Source: a virus
Direction: 5' to 3' (one strand)
DNA length: 64,000 nt
IMG/VR virus record: IMGVR_UViG_3300012642_000011
Coordinates: 96,001 to 160,000 of that record
The notes under the pieces: model-generated
Database searches by the model: none
The model's input: the letters and a program-made list of their open reading frames with translations, nothing else
Told to the model about the DNA's origin: nothing
Translations under genes and position numbers: made by a program
Shown: positions 29,892 to 52,667 of the stretch, piece after piece
How the letters are laid out: the number at the start of each line of letters is the position of its first letter
How positions within the stretch are numbered: position 1 is the stretch's first letter

Positions 29892-29965
29892 GCCTCTGTA
29901 GCTCAGTTGGTTAGAGCATCCGCCTCTTAAGCGGCAGGTCGTGGGTTCAAGTCCCACTGGGGGCA
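29892..29965 (+). tRNA. tRNA-Lys (anticodon CTT)
   Basis: Manual cloverleaf. Acceptor gcctctg/tgggggc (3 G-U pairs), D-arm gctc/gagc, anticodon loop ctCTTaa, T-loop ttcaagt. No CCA encoded. Confidence 0.75.
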
Positions 29966-30134
29966 CTGAGAGAAAGTTAGTAAATCTTTCTCTTTTGTAC
30001 CTTGCAAGAACATCTTTATGATGCCATATCATAAGCAACGTGTTCATCAATGCAAGATAGGAGAATTTTACTCAGGAAACATCCTAACAATATTATTCTC
30101 CATAGCCAAAATTTCCTTCTCATGCAGAAGGTAT

Positions 30135-30207
30135 TCCCCTATAGCTCAATTGGCAGAGCATTCGGCTGTTAACCGAAGGGTTCCTGGTTCGAATCCAGGT
30201 GGGGGAG
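30135..30207 (+). tRNA. tRNA-Asn (GTT)
   Basis: Acceptor tccccta/tggggga. Anticodon stem ttcgg/ccgaa, loop ctGTTaa. T-arm cctgg-ttcgaat-ccagg. Confidence 0.8.
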
Positions 30208-30384
30208 CAAAGAATGGCCGAAAACTGGTTCGAAACGGTATGCGGCGTCTTTAAGATCATGGTGTACAACATTGTCTTGAAGGTTTCTTTATTGTTCTTC
30301 TATGGTGTAAATGGAAAGCAAGCGTTCGTAGGAAAGGTGTAGGTTCGAATCCTGCTGGTAGAACAATAAAGACATTCTTTTTAT

Positions 30385-30457
30385 GCTCCTGAAGCTCAAA
30401 TGGATGAGCGTCCGATTGAAGATCGGAAGGTTGTGGGTTCGATACCCACCGGGAGCA
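30385..30457 (+). tRNA. tRNA-Phe (GAA)
   Basis: Acceptor gctcctg/cgggagc. Anticodon stem tccga/tcgga, loop ttGAAga. T-arm gtggg-ttcgata-cccac. Confidence 0.85.
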
Positions 30458-30507
30458 CTGTATCTTCGGATACTCAATAATTCTACGATGTGATGTAGAA
30501 TTATTAT

Positions 30508-30580
30508 GCCTGCGTAGCTCAATCGGGAGAGCGCCTGTCTGTCGAACAGGAGGTAGCCAGATCGAAACTGGTCGTAGGCG
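30508..30580 (+). tRNA. tRNA-Asp (GTC), atypical T-loop ATCGAAA
   Basis: Acceptor gcctgcg/cgtaggc. Anticodon stem cctgt/acagg, loop ctGTCga. T-arm gccag-atcgaaa-ctggt (A at position 54). Confidence 0.65.
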
Positions 30581-30729
30581 CAAAGGTGGTTCGCAGTGAC
30601 ACCCTGTATGCGTAGGAACTGCGTTGGCCTCCATATACCCTCTGGCTACGAACCAGTAGAAAGGTTAATGGATACATGCAGGTTCGAGTCCTGCTGGGGG
30701 CACGAAAGAGATCAATAATCTCTTATCAT

Positions 30730-30810
30730 GCTGGTATGCCAGAGGTCTGGCACCCGGTCTGTAAAACCGGCGTCATAGCGACAAAGTGGGTTCGATACCC
30801 TCTGCCAGCA
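30730..30810 (+). tRNA. tRNA-Tyr (GTA), class II
   Basis: Acceptor gctggta/tgccagc. Anticodon stem ccggt/accgg, loop ctGTAaa. Long variable arm cgtcatagcgacaaa. T-loop ttcgata. Confidence 0.75.
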
Positions 30811-30842
30811 CTGTGCTGACAAAGCACACATCCACAGGATGA

Positions 30843-49665: not shown

Positions 49666-49734
49666 TTGATTTTAATGATACCTCCTTCTATAGAGAATTC
49701 TTCATAATATTCTTGTTAAGAAGGAGGCATCATA

Positions 49735-50793
49735 ATGTCGGCTAAGTATGCTTTAAACACGGCAACAGGTGAAATCACGCTTTGTCGTAGCACTGGTCAA
49801 CGTCCTTGCCCACATGCCTCTGCAGATCATTACTCTTCGAAAGATGAAGCCCAGAATGCTTTTGAATCACTCATGAAAAAACAAGAAACGTTGTCATTGC
49901 AGAGAAAAAGCACAACATCACCATCTTATGACAATCTTCCATGGTTATCTCATGTAGGCGATCATTTTGATCAGATTGATGCTCACTATGAGATCACGGA
50001 TAGGTTTGAACACAATGGTCAAGGAATGGTTCTTCTACACAGTGACAAATCACCCTATAGCAATAGAGACATCTCGGCGTTCACAGAAGATGGCGCTGAA
50101 GTTAGCACCAGTGAAGTCAGGGATGAGGAAACAGGTGAGAGAATAGGGTTCTTGAAGACAGTCCAGTACTCTGATGCTGCTTTAGAAGCATCCTTTGGGA
50201 AAGAGGATGATTACATGACATATTTAAAATATGGTGAACGGTATCATTCTCTGTTCTATGATTTTGACGATGATCCAAAAGAGAGCATAGAGAACATGAA
50301 AAAATTGTGGAAGTCTGTGGCATCCTCTTCTGTCGTTAGATCCCATCCCCAGTACAGTGTCACATCTATGGGAATGAAACATAGACATGCAAATGGTAGA
50401 AGTCTTAATCCGCCTGAAAGCATGGAAGAGATAGAATCTGACCTTAAAGAGTCATCTAAATTCTTCCAAGAGGAATATATGAAACGATTTGATCCCTCCA
50501 CGAGATCATATGCTTTCATTGAATACTCCGAAATCAATGAAAGCCATAGAGGAACAGGGCTTGGCAAAAAGATGTACCTATCATCTGCGCGTGCTTTAGG
50601 AGCAAGGGGCCGTATTCTTGCGTCTTCAACCTTACAAACAGACAATGCTCAAGGTCTATGGAAATCATTGCTGAAAGACGACAATGACCACATTAGAATC
50701 CACTCCTATGACTATAAGGGAGAAAAGAAAAACAATTACTTGCTTGATTATAGAGATAAGAGTATTGATCAAGTCAAGGATGGTGAAGAATAA
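49735..50793 (+). CDS. shared N-terminal motif domain fused to a GNAT-like acetyltransferase domain (tandem paralog 1)
   Basis: N-terminus MSAKYALNTATGEITLCRSTGQRPCPHASADHYSSKDEAQNAFE. C-terminal GNAT motif A HRGTGLGKKMY. SD aaggagg upstream. Confidence 0.6.
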   Translation: MSAKYALNTATGEITLCRSTGQRPCPHASADHYSSKDEAQNAFESLMKKQETLSLQRKSTTSPSYDNLPWLSHVGDHFDQIDAHYEITDRFEHNGQGMVLLHSDKSPYSNRDISAFTEDGAEVSTSEVRDEETGERIGFLKTVQYSDAALEASFGKEDDYMTYLKYGERYHSLFYDFDDDPKESIENMKKLWKSVASSSVVRSHPQYSVTSMGMKHRHANGRSLNPPESMEEIESDLKESSKFFQEEYMKRFDPSTRSYAFIEYSEINESHRGTGLGKKMYLSSARALGARGRILASSTLQTDNAQGLWKSLLKDDNDHIRIHSYDYKGEKKNNYLLDYRDKSIDQVKDGEE

Positions 50794-51821
50794 TGCCTCA
50801 ATACGCTTTGAACACGCAAACAGGTGAGATCACGCTTTGTCGTAGCACTGGTCAGCGTCCTTGTCCACATGCTGACAATGATCACTATGCATCCAAAGAT
50901 GATGCTCAGAAATCTTTTGAGAGCATGAATGAGAACAATCAGATTGCCACATTGTCCAAGGCAAAAAAGGCACCAGAGGAATCATCCCTGCCCTTTCCTT
51001 CATGGGCAGAAGAACACAAGAAAGCAGTGGAAGCAGTAGGCGGAGAGTACAGTATTGTCAATAGGATCATACATCAAGGGAAGCCTATGGTCATCACACA
51101 TTCTACATTGTCTTCTCGTGATCACGATAAATTCGTCCAAGAGAAAAGCGGAATGAACATCTCAGAGACGATTGTTCATGATGAGGAAACAGGAGAAAAG
51201 ATTGGTTTCATCAATGTATGCTTTGTCAATGATGAGTCAGTGAGAAGATGCTTTGGTGATGAAGATGACTACATGACTCCTATCAGGTATGCCAAAAGGT
51301 ACATATCTTCAATTCAAGGCGCGAAGATGAAGGTCAATGAAGACCCTCGTGGCAATGATAAAAAGATGAGGGAATTGTGGCTTGATGTGATGAATGTTGA
51401 TTCATCTCATATAAGGGATTTCAAAGTTCCCTCTGGTGCCAAGATGAGCGGATGGTCATGGACAGCAGATGATGTTCCTGAAGACCCTAAGGCAGTAGAA
51501 AAGGATATCGAGTCACTATCTGGTCAATTCAAGGAACAACTCAGAGAGTTCAAGAGATCTTTTAGCGTTCCTTTTGTTGAATTTGCTGAAATAGAAGATG
51601 AGTACAAGGGAACAGGTTTAGGCAAGAAGATGTATGTGGAAGCAGCCAAGGCAATGGGAAAGCGTGGTATGGTAATCAGATCATCAGCAATTCAATCTGA
51701 AGATGCAGAAAGGCTATGGTCATCATTACGTAAAGATGAGAATATTGTTGTCAAAGAAGGTAATCTAGCCGTCAAGGGAGACACATACGATTACCTCTAT
51801 CTTGACTACAGGGATCAATGA
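50793..51821 (+). CDS. shared N-terminal motif domain fused to a GNAT-like acetyltransferase domain (tandem paralog 2)
   Basis: N-terminus MPQYALNTQTGEITLCRSTGQRPCPHADNDHYASKDDAQKSFE. C-terminal YKGTGLGKKMY. TAATG overlap with paralog 1. Confidence 0.6.
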   Translation: MPQYALNTQTGEITLCRSTGQRPCPHADNDHYASKDDAQKSFESMNENNQIATLSKAKKAPEESSLPFPSWAEEHKKAVEAVGGEYSIVNRIIHQGKPMVITHSTLSSRDHDKFVQEKSGMNISETIVHDEETGEKIGFINVCFVNDESVRRCFGDEDDYMTPIRYAKRYISSIQGAKMKVNEDPRGNDKKMRELWLDVMNVDSSHIRDFKVPSGAKMSGWSWTADDVPEDPKAVEKDIESLSGQFKEQLREFKRSFSVPFVEFAEIEDEYKGTGLGKKMYVEAAKAMGKRGMVIRSSAIQSEDAERLWSSLRKDENIVVKEGNLAVKGDTYDYLYLDYRDQ

Positions 51822-52149
51822 TACTAAGATTTGGCCTGCCCTTATGATAGTTGAAACGGGTATCAGTGCGTACATTCGTCCACATTGGTGATCGATACTG
51901 AATTTTCTTCTGATCGATTTGCATACAAGATCATCATATGCTATACTATGAAGAGTTGATCAGGAGATCACACAAGATAAAAATTGAAAACTAAAGAGCA
52001 ATCTGAAGTTGACAACGAAGAATCCATGTGATAGAATGATGGACATCAAGTGGTTACGAGAGTGATCACGAGAACAACAGAAAAACATGCAGGGATTAGA
52101 ACTTGACAAGAGAGCAAGTACCTGATATACTGGATGTAGCAATTGAATA

Positions 52150-52220
52150 TTGGGCCATGGTGTAATGGCAGCACGGGGGTCTTTGGAACCTTCGGTCCCG
52201 GTTCGAATCCGTGTGGCCCA
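52150..52220 (+). tRNA. tRNA-Gln (TTG) (U1-A72, G73)
   Basis: Acceptor tgggcca/tggccca. Anticodon stem ggggt/acctt, loop ctTTGga. T-arm cccgg-ttcgaat-ccgtg. Confidence 0.65.
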
Positions 52221-52408
52221 GCGAGATCGGAAGTGAGAGATATGAGTTTCTTCAAAAAGAAAAATCGATACATCTGTCACTTTTGTGATCAACTTGTTGA
52301 CTTAGATCGTATGCGTATGCATCAGTTAGGACATGATCTAAGCGAGGAGAGAAGGTACATCGTATTTCCTCGGCATACAAGAACAAAACAATAGAATAGT
52401 GTACTCAT

Positions 52409-52479
52409 TGGGATATAGTTTAATGGCAAAACGTTCGGCTCTGACCCGAGTAATCTTGGTTCGAATCCAGGTATCCCAG
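52409..52479 (+). tRNA. tRNA-Gln (CTG) (U1-A72, G73)
   Basis: Acceptor tgggata/tatccca. D-arm gttt/aaac. Anticodon stem ttcgg/ccgag, loop ctCTGac. T-arm cttgg-ttcgaat-ccagg. Confidence 0.75.
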
Positions 52480-52593
52480 CGATAGCGACAATCAAGCCTC
52501 TTCCGTCAGGAATGCTCAAATGCATTGGAGTCACTGAGAAGAGAAGACGTTCTTTGATCACACTTGTCCTCTTATGAGGATTCGCTTATTTAA

Positions 52594-52667
52594 CGGGATG
52601 TAGCTCAGTTTGGTAGAGCGCTTGTCTGGGGGACAAGTGGCCGCTGGTTCAAATCCAGTCATTCCGA
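52594..52667 (+). tRNA. tRNA-Pro (GGG) (C1-G72)
   Basis: Acceptor cgggatg/cattccg. Anticodon stem cttgt/acaag, loop ctGGGgg. T-arm gctgg-ttcaaat-ccagt. Confidence 0.8.

Follow-up and report, generated by a model that had tools for sequence, protein, structure and literature searches.

We analysed a stretch of 64,000 nucleotides of viral DNA (IMG/VR record IMGVR_UViG_3300012642_000011, positions 96,001 to 160,000; hereafter the window), which carries a large island of tRNA genes between positions 29892 and 52668. This is probably the ancestral tRNA island of a 332-kb actinobacterial phage, inherited at a fixed position from the ancestor of its clade and not recently assembled, with a content that turns over in place. 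The genes for a SNF2 helicase and a VWA protein (25787..28299, + strand) form a syntenic anchor directly upstream of the island in all relatives. In the relatives whose sequence was retrieved through the helicase, the gene order PIF1 helicase, PASTA, SpoU, metallophosphatase, SNF2 helicase, then VWA or NucS, is kept. All 23 of the 23 relatives with enough downstream DNA carry 15-31 tRNA genes, all on the + strand and starting 1.3-4.7 kb past the helicase. The homologues of this helicase (25787-27559) show 42-55% identity and were found on contigs of up to 828 kb.

The orthology of individual genes can also be traced. The two Gly-TCC genes of the window, which share 63% identity, each match a separate Gly-TCC gene of the relative L022 (80% and 85% identity), and since each copy has its own orthologue the pair is older than the split from L022. 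The tRNA-Asp at 44149 is 86% identical to that of L022, the tRNA-Asn is 95% identical to that of L010 and 92-95% identical to those of clade relatives, and the Pro-TGG gene at 47708 is 87% identical to a Pro-AGG gene of L003, while the Pro-GGG gene shows 80-84% identity to Pro-TGG and Pro-CGG genes elsewhere in the clade. This traced orthology indicates that many of the duplicates are old paralogues and that anticodons drift within a codon box. Anticodons starting with A recur in the clade, as Pro-AGG and Leu-AAG (L003 16342, L004 14881, L022 16530; window 31237, 33829). In bacteria, A34 is normally confined to tRNA-Arg(ACG).

Gene set, 3' ends and source genome

A total of 38 tRNA genes was detected by ARAGORN in the window. 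All of them lie on the + strand; 37 are located within 29892-52668 and the remaining one at 58915-58988. The original prediction of about 36 genes in six or more clusters is thereby confirmed; splitting at gaps larger than about 400-500 bp gives approximately nine groups. The Rfam model RF00005, with a gathering threshold of 29 bits, supports 34 of the 38 calls at 46.5-70.5 bits (33 of them in 29892-52668). Four calls fall below this threshold: Tyr 30730, which forms a clean class II cloverleaf (z = -3.1), Leu-AAG 31237, which is 84% identical to the Rfam-supported Leu-CAG 30991, His 31896, which has a long variable arm and relatives elsewhere, and the call at 34578, which has a defective anticodon loop. 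Twenty genes lie in the 6.1 kb from 29892 to 35984 (3.3 per kb), and the 22.8-kb island as a whole contains 1.6 genes per kb, its density staying under 2 per kb because protein genes are interleaved. A tRNA array unit has been defined as at least 20 tRNA genes at 2 or more per kb (PMC4758250), and the island, with 37 genes in 29892-52668, exceeds this minimum number.

Seven pairs of duplicated isoacceptors with diverged sequences had been proposed. All of them are present, with identities of 85% for Ser-TGA, 73% for Glu-CTC, 71% for Lys-CTT, 70% for Pro-TGG, 63% for both His-GTG and Gly-TCC, and 59% for Asp-GTC; a third His gene and a Leu-AAG pair had been overlooked. The three His copies are 57-63% identical. 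Overall the duplicates range from 54 to 85% identity, against a background of 57% (standard deviation 6%) for all tRNA pairs. Because they are real and diverged, an assembly artefact is excluded. The Ser-TGA pair (5.7 kb apart) and a pair of short tRNA-Leu genes (84% identity) appear to have been duplicated inside the island.

The 3' CCA is encoded in three genes and no others, namely Ser-TGA 35752, Ser-TGA 41477 and His 42692, exactly as proposed. The further proposal that this mixed status is a sign of several sources did not survive comparison with other loci. CCA is encoded by none of 69 genes in L003, L004 and L022, by 6-8 genes per locus in L006, L010 and L011, and by 14 of 27 Ser tRNA genes. 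It is mixed as well in the bacterial loci carrying a matching tRNA-Asn, where 47 genes encode CCA and 151 of the 168 CCA-less genes end in C74 only, in a sample consisting almost wholly of Asn and Met genes. CCA status is thus no marker of source, being scattered among isotypes, lineages and bacterial loci. Position 74 is C in all 34 Rfam-supported tRNAs. Position profiles give C74 in 38 of 38 tRNAs of the window and in 68 of 69 from L003, L004 and L022, and as ARAGORN calls always end at position 74, the Rfam-anchored count alone was used as evidence. In the same four loci, a C at position 75 occurs only as part of a fully encoded CCA, and the leaders show a bias to T/C-A-T at positions -3 to -1. 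We considered C74 without CCA as a phage-specific processing signal and rejected this idea, given the C74-only ends of 6 of 6 tRNAs in Arthrobacter phage Racecar and of the 151 bacterial genes.

The source genome was traced through a 904-amino-acid gene of the island, identical copies of which occur on 8 independent contigs, the longest being a metagenome contig of 332,269 bp from ENA. The phage genome has a guanine-plus-cytosine (GC) content of 41%, and the window contains phage-type genes for a ribonucleotide reductase, Dda-like and SNF2 helicases, a transposase, a transglycosylase and 4 Hef-like homing endonucleases. No close cultured phage was found at the DNA level, as the initial 6.3 kb of the island, compared by megablast with 50,697 phage records, gave single-tRNA matches only, and the SNF2 helicase has no close homologue in any cultured phage. 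The phage belongs to a clade known from metagenomes alone. Six of the helicase homologues (P0020, P0024, P0054, P0101, P0108 and P0111) lie on contigs of 670-828 kb, compared with a 735-kb phage genome reported in 2020.

The host is most likely a high-GC actinobacterium, as judged from several sequence features. The tRNA-Asn(GTT) at 30135 is 96% identical to the tRNA-Asn of Mycobacterium colombiense and Mycolicibacterium vulneris, and a degenerate pattern derived from this tRNA matched at least 120 genomes, nearly all Actinomycetota among the matches listed. Remote protein matches and single-tRNA matches point to phages of Gordonia, Rhodococcus, Arthrobacter and Microbacterium, and G5, PASTA and NucS domains are encoded by the phage and its relatives. 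In addition, the 41 genes of the window end in TGA (31), TAA (9) or TAG (1) despite the 41% GC, a preference for TGA that also argues for such a host.

Clusters, promoters, homing endonucleases and unusual tRNAs

The first cluster (29892..33225, +; ARAGORN and Rfam) comprises 16 tRNA genes, namely Lys-CTT 29892, Asn-GTT 30135, Phe-GAA 30385, Asp-GTC 30508, Tyr-GTA 30730, the short Leu-CAG 30991 and Leu-AAG 31237, Arg-TCG 31631, the long-arm His-GTG 31896, Glu-CTC 32026, His-GTG 32102, Leu-GAG 32376, Leu-TAG 32548, Ile-GAT 32866, Met-CAT 32942 and Lys-CTT 33153. The host-like tRNA-Asn(GTT) spans 30135..30208 (+). A solitary class II tRNA-Leu(AAG) of 87 nucleotides follows at 33829..33915 (+; ARAGORN and Rfam), and then an aberrant Gln-like tRNA at 34578..34649 (+), which has a shortened anticodon loop (ARAGORN anticodon 'tt'), no Rfam match, and is probably a pseudogene. 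Ser-TGA (35752-35839, CCA encoded) and Glu-TTC (35911-35984) lie together with promoters 35695 and 35843 in 35695..35984 (+). Two predicted open reading frames (ORFs), 33752-34150 over Leu-AAG 33829 and 35611-35925 over Ser-TGA 35752 and Glu-TTC 35911, are probably not genes.

Further downstream, the cluster at 41477..42306 (+) contains Ser-TGA 41477 (CCA encoded), Thr-TGT 41744, an amber suppressor at 41837, promoter 41959, Ser-GCT 42011, Trp-CCA 42140 and Glu-CTC 42232. It is followed by a tRNA-His(GTG) with G-1, C73 and encoded CCA (42692-42768, +), directly before the terminator 42772-42808, and by the second copy of tRNA-Asp(GTC) at 44149..44223 (+). Gly-TCC 46133, Ala-TGC 46324, Gly-TCC 46664, Gly-GCC 46964 and Pro-TGG 47209 form a cluster at 46133..47284 (+), after which come the second tRNA-Pro(TGG) (47708-47783, +) with the terminator 47791-47821 and the last cluster, 52151..52668 (+), with Gln-TTG 52151, Gln-CTG 52409 and Pro-GGG 52594. 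The outlying tRNA-Thr(GGT) at 58915-58988 (+), beyond the end of the originally predicted island, has its own promoter at 58852-58881. Just after it, a 120-amino-acid ORF (59021-59383) matches the RING-type family zf-C3HC4_3 with 27.6 bits against a cutoff of 27; such a domain would be unusual in a phage, and the match is possibly borderline.

Putative promoters were identified by their match to the 12 consensus positions. In the whole window, at least 11 positions match at 12 sites of the + strand and at no site of the - strand; 100 first-order Markov simulations gave an expectation of about 1.9 for the two strands combined. All but one of the 12 sites fall in the range 28949-58852, inside the island or next to it. 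Sites with 11/12 matches are found at 28949, 29063, 35695, 35843, 41959, 45949, 46050, 47424, 52009, 52103 and 58852, and 10/12 sites at 28834, 29483 and 45847. Nearly all of the strong sites carry a TG extension, the promoters have ACATCAAC in common after the -10 element, and their ends lie 19-54 nucleotides upstream of the 5' end of a tRNA. TTGACA-17-TGnTATAAT promoters also occur within the islands of closer relatives. Seven near-consensus promoters had originally been listed. Those corresponding to 45949, 46050, 47424, 52009 and 58852 exist, their positions being off by 5-14 nucleotides, whereas '51915' corresponds to a weak site (9/12) at 51918 and '52060' to no site (43 nucleotides off if 52103 was meant). 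The 11/12 sites 28949, 29063, 35695, 35843 and 41959 and the three 10/12 sites had been missed.

Upstream of the first cluster a tandem array (28834..29091, +) has hexamers at 28834 (10/12), 28949 and 29063 (11/12), the latter two being TTGACA-17-TGnTATGAT sites; the hexamers are carried on a 114-bp direct repeat (28840-29067). The 114-bp unit is present in three copies in the window and in two copies in the near-identical strain L002 (12900-13000; 97% helicase identity), indicating that the copy number of the tandem promoter is polymorphic. A fourth promoter-like site, TTGACA-17-TAGAGT (10/12), lies at 29483..29511 (+). Between it and the first tRNA we noted a GC-rich, apparently structured stretch (29540-29625), which is almost unchanged in L002 and has no match in Rfam. 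With three tandem promoters and a fourth one upstream and no strong promoter inside, the first 16 tRNAs may be transcribed as one long precursor. Elsewhere, three promoters about 100 bp apart (45847, 10/12; 45949 and 46050, 11/12) occupy 45847..46078 (+), and two 11/12 promoters, 52009 and 52103, occupy 52009..52131 (+), the second ending 19 nucleotides before tRNA-Gln. A leader, CAATTGAATAT, is common to the promoter at 52103, before tRNA-Gln 52151, and to that at 47424, before the minihelix described below. Three strong terminators made of a hairpin plus a T-run follow tRNAs or ORFs at 40109, 42772 (16-bp hairpin, to 42808) and 47791 (14-bp hairpin, to 47821).

Three genes on the + strand that code for predicted Hef-like homing endonucleases abut tRNA genes in the island. 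They encode 496 amino acids (44348..45838, starting 124 nucleotides after tRNA-Asp; PF14311 2e-25, phrog_3339 2e-99), 614 amino acids as judged from its longest ORF (47821..49665, starting 37 nucleotides after tRNA-Pro(TGG)) and 645 amino acids (52738..54675, starting 69 nucleotides after tRNA-Pro(GGG)). The family was defined by DUF4379 treble-clef zinc-finger repeats together with the conserved C-terminal domain of phrog_3339/phrog_559, and the members matched PF14311 (DUF4379) with E = 2e-20 to 9e-29 and phrog_3339 with E = 5e-89 to 2e-99. The product of 44348..45838 is 33% identical to the Hef-like endonuclease of AR9/PBS1. Identities are 37-46% among the three island genes and 31-46% among all four in the window, and the genes are therefore old paralogues and no recent copies; no near-identical repeats flank them. 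The fourth gene (4674-6407) lies directly upstream of the gene for the large subunit of ribonucleotide reductase (6718-11298), which codes for 1526 amino acids with intein-sized insertions. The islands of the sister clade (L006-L026) keep a common order of tRNAs, and GIY-YIG, HNH and SegE-like ORFs are present or absent between genomes, as are single tRNAs beside them (Asp, Lys-TTT, Lys-CTT, Tyr, and Leu plus His). This presence/absence polymorphism was observed for the GIY-YIG, HNH and SegE-like genes of the sister clade only, and the endonuclease-linked turnover of tRNAs there matches that reported for SegB in T4 and T6 (PMC2330249, PMC13096335). The other ORFs of the island gave no function in tRNA biology with Pfam, PHROGs and NCBIfam. 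Among them, the 904-amino-acid gene (36934-39648) has no known domain; it is the single TAG-terminated gene of the window and lies 2.2 kb upstream of the amber suppressor.

Several tRNAs have uncommon forms. Two tRNA-Leu genes without a long variable arm (CAG and AAG, 74 and 73 nucleotides, 246 bp apart) occupy 30991..31309 (+). Membership of this short-arm type was assigned from class I length, A73, a conserved D-arm and variable-region motif and a Leu anticodon, all of which are found in 30991-31064 and 31237-31309, and both align with members in L003 (15810-15883, TAG), L010 (19228-19301, TAA) and L022 (20483-20557, CAA). When the body pattern was searched in IMG/VR with the anticodon left free, all 102 unique sequences had a Leu anticodon (TAA 78, CAA 18, TAG 4, CAG 1, GAG 1) and A73. 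The type is not a new discovery, as it is widespread and is annotated as tRNA-Leu in cultured cyanophages and in Pseudomonas, Vibrio, Mycobacterium and Streptomyces phages; we found no discussion of it in the literature searched. The tRNA-His(GTG) at 31896..31981 (+), 86 nucleotides long and without an Rfam call, has a 14-nucleotide variable arm, a genomic G at -1 and C73. Long-arm tRNA-His genes of 85-86 nucleotides also occur in the sister clade (L006 13648 and L011 13979, where the D-arm resembles that of class II tRNA-Leu), on six unrelated IMG/VR contigs and in Racecar; a further example is L085 5770-5854.

The amber-reading tRNA (anticodon CTA, 41837..41909, +) has a canonical class I cloverleaf with A73 and scores 65.5 bits with Rfam. 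Its A15:U48 pair was rejected as a clue to a Leu-type suppressor, this pair being common among the tRNAs of the island. A search of IMG/VR with its body pattern returned phage tRNA-Glu(TTC) only, which is not decisive for its amino-acid identity. At 47424..47520 (+), promoter 47424-47452 is followed 19 nucleotides later by a 49-nucleotide Ala-like minihelix (47472-47520) with the acceptor GGGGGTA/TACCTCC containing G3:U70, a T-arm, A73 and C74, and without D and anticodon arms. It is reminiscent of the 'tRNA-like stable RNAs' of T5. A scan of 28500-60000 with Rfam 15 gave no ribozyme family at E <= 1, the presence of the theta model in Rfam 15 being unconfirmed.

About seven tRNA remnants lie in the island. 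Intact T-arms outside called genes occur at 30339, 30678, 43918, 43992 and 47495, compared with a single chance match in the rest of the window. A decayed tRNA-like remnant at 30288..30364 (+) retains its T-arm (30339-30355) and scores 26.7 bits against the cutoff of 29. Another, at 30627..30703 (+), has an intact acceptor (GCCTCCA/TGGGGGC, identical to that of Arg-TCG 31631) and T-arm with a rearranged middle, and at 32269..32303 (+) only the T-arm and 3' acceptor of a decayed tRNA remain. The sole remnant on the - strand, at 40030..40106, is Met-like and folds poorly (28.8 bits against 29; relaxed ARAGORN only). Two remnants lie in tandem at 43882..44016 (+), with T-arms at 43918 and 43992; with permissive filters Rfam scores them at 26.0 and 30.7 bits. 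An intron-containing tRNA-Arg(TCT) at 43832-43942, which would fill the AGA gap, was ruled out by its poor acceptor stem. The permissive Rfam scan of the spacers gave weak tRNA-like matches only. We found no tandem near-identical tRNA units of the SegB type, the closest pair being 85% identical, and no long direct repeat besides the 114-bp promoter unit.

Working of the island and competing explanations

In the explanation that we propose, the island is an ancestral locus, and host RNA polymerase would transcribe it from at least a dozen near-consensus promoters of the sigma-70/SigA type with an extended -10 element, giving transcripts with leaders of 19-54 nucleotides or, for the first 16 genes, one long multi-tRNA precursor. 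The T/C-A-T bias of the leaders, the universal C74 and the encoding of CCA in three genes only suggest that these transcripts would be processed by enzymes of the host, namely RNase P, those that trim the 3' end and the CCA-adding enzyme; the roles of RNase P and the CCA-adding enzyme in tRNA maturation are well established. With simple wobble rules, 43 codons can be read by the 27 different sense anticodons, and they make up 73% of the codons in the 41 window genes; this breadth points to a considerable autonomy in decoding. Translation of phage genes may thereby depend little on host tRNAs, in whatever condition or proportions these are present. Turnover would proceed by gene duplication in place (the Ser-TGA and short-Leu pairs), by anticodon switching within a codon box (Pro TGG/AGG/GGG/CGG; Leu CAG/AAG/TAG/TAA/CAA), by decay into remnants, by the uptake, now and then, of a tRNA from a host or a foreign phage (Asn, Met) and by local replacement beside free-standing homing endonucleases.

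Several points weigh against this picture. The promoters are known by their consensus match alone, and in the relatives the first 5-9 kb of each island was covered. A search of IMG/VR with the 904-amino-acid protein and the exact suppressor-tRNA stretch gave no close relative of the island. As to the host, the assignment draws on one tRNA and on domain and phage affinities; no link by clustered regularly interspaced short palindromic repeats (CRISPR) or by a prophage was found, and the IS605-type transposase, used as a host probe, had no relative among the genome contigs searched. The codons served do not fit a simple scheme either. The set lacks tRNAs for Val, Cys, Lys-AAA (3.6% of codons), Arg-AGA/AGG/CGY and Leu-TTG/TTA, while the rare codons CGA and CTA are served, so that the set has no simple fit to phage codon use, and several C34 tRNAs (Lys-CTT twice, Glu-CTC twice) read G-ending codons for which a high-GC host should already be well equipped. 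For these reasons simple codon compensation is not demonstrated.

The original prediction had viewed the island as assembled from more than one source, possibly spread by the interleaved endonucleases. In its full form, a mosaic recently put together from several donors, with duplicates and mixed CCA marking the sources and homing endonucleases carrying pieces in, this seems rather doubtful. Such a history would account for same-anticodon pairs that are no closer than unrelated tRNAs (Asp 59%, His 57-63%, Gly-TCC 63%). It would also fit two genes that look laterally acquired: the tRNA-Met(CAT) at 32942..33018 (+), which has a C1/A72 mismatch and shares 75 of 77 bases with that of Racecar between unrelated flanks, and the tRNA-Asn, nearly identical to a mycobacterial gene. 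Endonuclease genes do lie next to tRNAs in the window, and in the sister clade their presence varies together with gain and loss of neighbouring tRNAs. For SegB it is known that tRNA regions are preferentially inherited and amplified through its action (PMC2330249, PMC13096335). However, the position, strand and make-up of the island are conserved across relatives whose helicases are 42-55% identical, each Gly-TCC copy has a separate orthologue in L022, and CCA varies by lineage and isotype in the clade and also in the bacterial loci examined. The Hef-like genes, 31-46% identical and without identical or near-identical flanking repeats, are too old to have spread recently. What stands of the earlier view is a limited lateral input (Asn, Met) into an island that is old as a whole, and an association of endonucleases with tRNA turnover in the sister clade. 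Even less can be said for software false positives or duplicates created by assembly. Four calls came from ARAGORN without Rfam, among them the one at 34578 with its faulty anticodon loop, but 34 calls score 46-70 bits against a cutoff of 29, no copies are identical, the 904-amino-acid gene recurs on 8 independent contigs and relatives carry the same kind of island, by which this explanation is already refuted.

Other explanations concern the use of the island. Its tRNAs could replace host tRNAs cut by defence nucleases or lost in shut-off, the diverged duplicates and odd Leu and His forms being nuclease-resistant variants or decoys and the strong early promoters giving a fast supply. We regard this as possible, though on the unlikely side; it is compatible with an ancestral island turning over in place and not exclusive of it. 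Published cases of anti-defence phage tRNAs lend it some weight: T5 tRNAs act against PARIS and retrons, mycobacteriophages carry anticodon-loop variants, and SegB-driven amplification of tRNA-Tyr counters Septu, a variable-loop cutter (PMC11464382, PMC11555353, PMC10264068, PMC13096335). The promoters 19-54 nucleotides upstream of tRNAs, the promoter repeat whose copy number differs between strains, the same-anticodon paralogues with very different bodies and the conservation of the short-arm Leu and long-arm His families across phages would also agree with it. The short-arm Leu family, however, is spread over phages whose hosts differ widely, so that it is no local adaptation. A genetic-code switch, in which in-frame TAG codons in late genes elsewhere in the 332-kb genome would be read by the tRNA-CUA with the support of the island, appears distinctly improbable. 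It would give a role to the well-formed CTA-anticodon tRNA and agree with TAG ending only 1 of 41 window genes, and in other phages suppressor tRNAs have been tied to the recoding of lysis and structural genes (PMC10879173, PMC11210395). Against it, TAG scarcity could merely follow from the preference for TGA, and no suppressor is present in the sampled parts of the relatives' islands. Recoding within the 64-kb window was rejected, since reading TAG as sense gave a gain in ORF length similar to or below that for TAA; about 268 kb of the genome lie outside the window. Unlikely, finally, is a broader proposal by which the island would be a kit for defence evasion and code manipulation and not a plain codon supplement. 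The diverged paralogues, short-arm Leu, long-arm His, promoter-driven Ala minihelix and amber suppressor would then all be functional and escape or decoy host nucleases that target tRNAs, the suppressor would read through or recode TAG in host or late phage genes, and homing endonucleases and promoter-repeat expansion would tune dosage, by analogy with SegB in T6. If true, this kind of system would be described here for the first time in huge phages of Actinobacteria.

Related systems and biological meaning

The closest characterised architecture is the tRNA region of phage T5 (NC_005859, about 28-41 kb), which has 25 tRNAs, one pseudo-tRNA, several 'tRNA-like stable RNAs', about 10 promoters and 4-5 HNH endonucleases. 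Both loci contain at least two dozen co-oriented tRNA genes over more than 10 kb, interleaved with small ORFs and several free-standing homing endonuclease genes, and both have terminators, pseudogenes, tRNA-like RNAs and multiple strong promoters of the sigma-70 type, which in the window are consensus matches only. They differ in that CCA is encoded by all 22 canonical T5 tRNAs (22 of 23 calls) and by 3 of 38 in the window, and in that the T5 endonucleases are HNH enzymes while those of the window are Hef-like with DUF4379 zinc fingers and a phrog_3339 domain. Moreover, T5 has few duplicated isoacceptors, no sequence relationship to the window and a host of a different phylum. The T4/T6 tRNA cluster with the GIY-YIG endonuclease SegB (PMC2330249, PMC13096335) likewise has a free-standing endonuclease gene among tRNA genes, and SegB causes preferential inheritance and, under selection, amplification of its neighbours. 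GIY-YIG and SegE-like genes occur in the islands of relatives, whereas the three enzymes of the window are Hef-like by sequence and no identical tandem units accompany them.

Huge phages have been reported with up to 67 tRNAs per genome, their number scaling with genome size (PMC7162821). The phage studied here resembles them in its size above 200 kb, its detection in metagenomes only and its dozens of tRNAs distinct from those of the host; the hosts highlighted in that work were Firmicutes, Proteobacteria and Bacteroidetes, whereas the present clues lead to Actinomycetota. Arthrobacter phage Racecar (MN234206) shares the tRNA-Met, a long-arm tRNA-His of about 85 nucleotides, the C74-only 3' ends and a GC content well below that of the host genus. 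It differs in its size (194 kb), in the dispersal of its tRNAs among protein genes and in showing no detectable similarity in DNA or gene order beyond single tRNAs. Recoded crAss-like and Lak phages (PMC10879173, PMC11210395) have in common with the window a phage tRNA reading UAG and a near absence of TAG as terminator. Unlike in those phages, there is no in-frame TAG signal in the 64-kb window, no theta or hepatitis delta virus-like ribozyme was detected beside its tRNAs with an Rfam 15 set in which the theta model is unconfirmed, and the probable host phylum differs. Bacterial tRNA array units and L-arrays (PMC4758250, PMC8421152) are similarly dense sets of 20 or more tRNA genes with duplicated and diverged isoacceptors, located on bacterial chromosomes or plasmids, whereas the window holds a phage locus conserved in a clade, with its own promoters and homing endonucleases.

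A large tRNA island is a real but fairly ordinary feature of huge phages, and this one sets itself apart by its Hef-like endonucleases, C74-only ends, number of diverged paralogues and probable host phylum. Large tRNA sets are a hallmark of huge phages. Their origin and use are under debate, with proposals that they compensate for codon usage, free the phage from a host in collapse or evade defences that cut tRNAs. The comparative case offered here is that of one conserved island position across a deep, metagenome-only clade, with helicase contigs from about 330 to 828 kb. Owing to this conserved position, the gain, loss and duplication of tRNA genes, anticodon switching and endonuclease-linked replacement can be traced gene by gene. 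The island also points to a low-GC lineage of huge phages that probably infects high-GC Actinobacteria, a host group scarce among described huge phages, and it offers the amber suppressor, the short-arm Leu, the long-arm His and the Ala-like minihelix as objects for tests. If the host were confirmed, a direct test of codon compensation against the anti-defence explanations would become possible.

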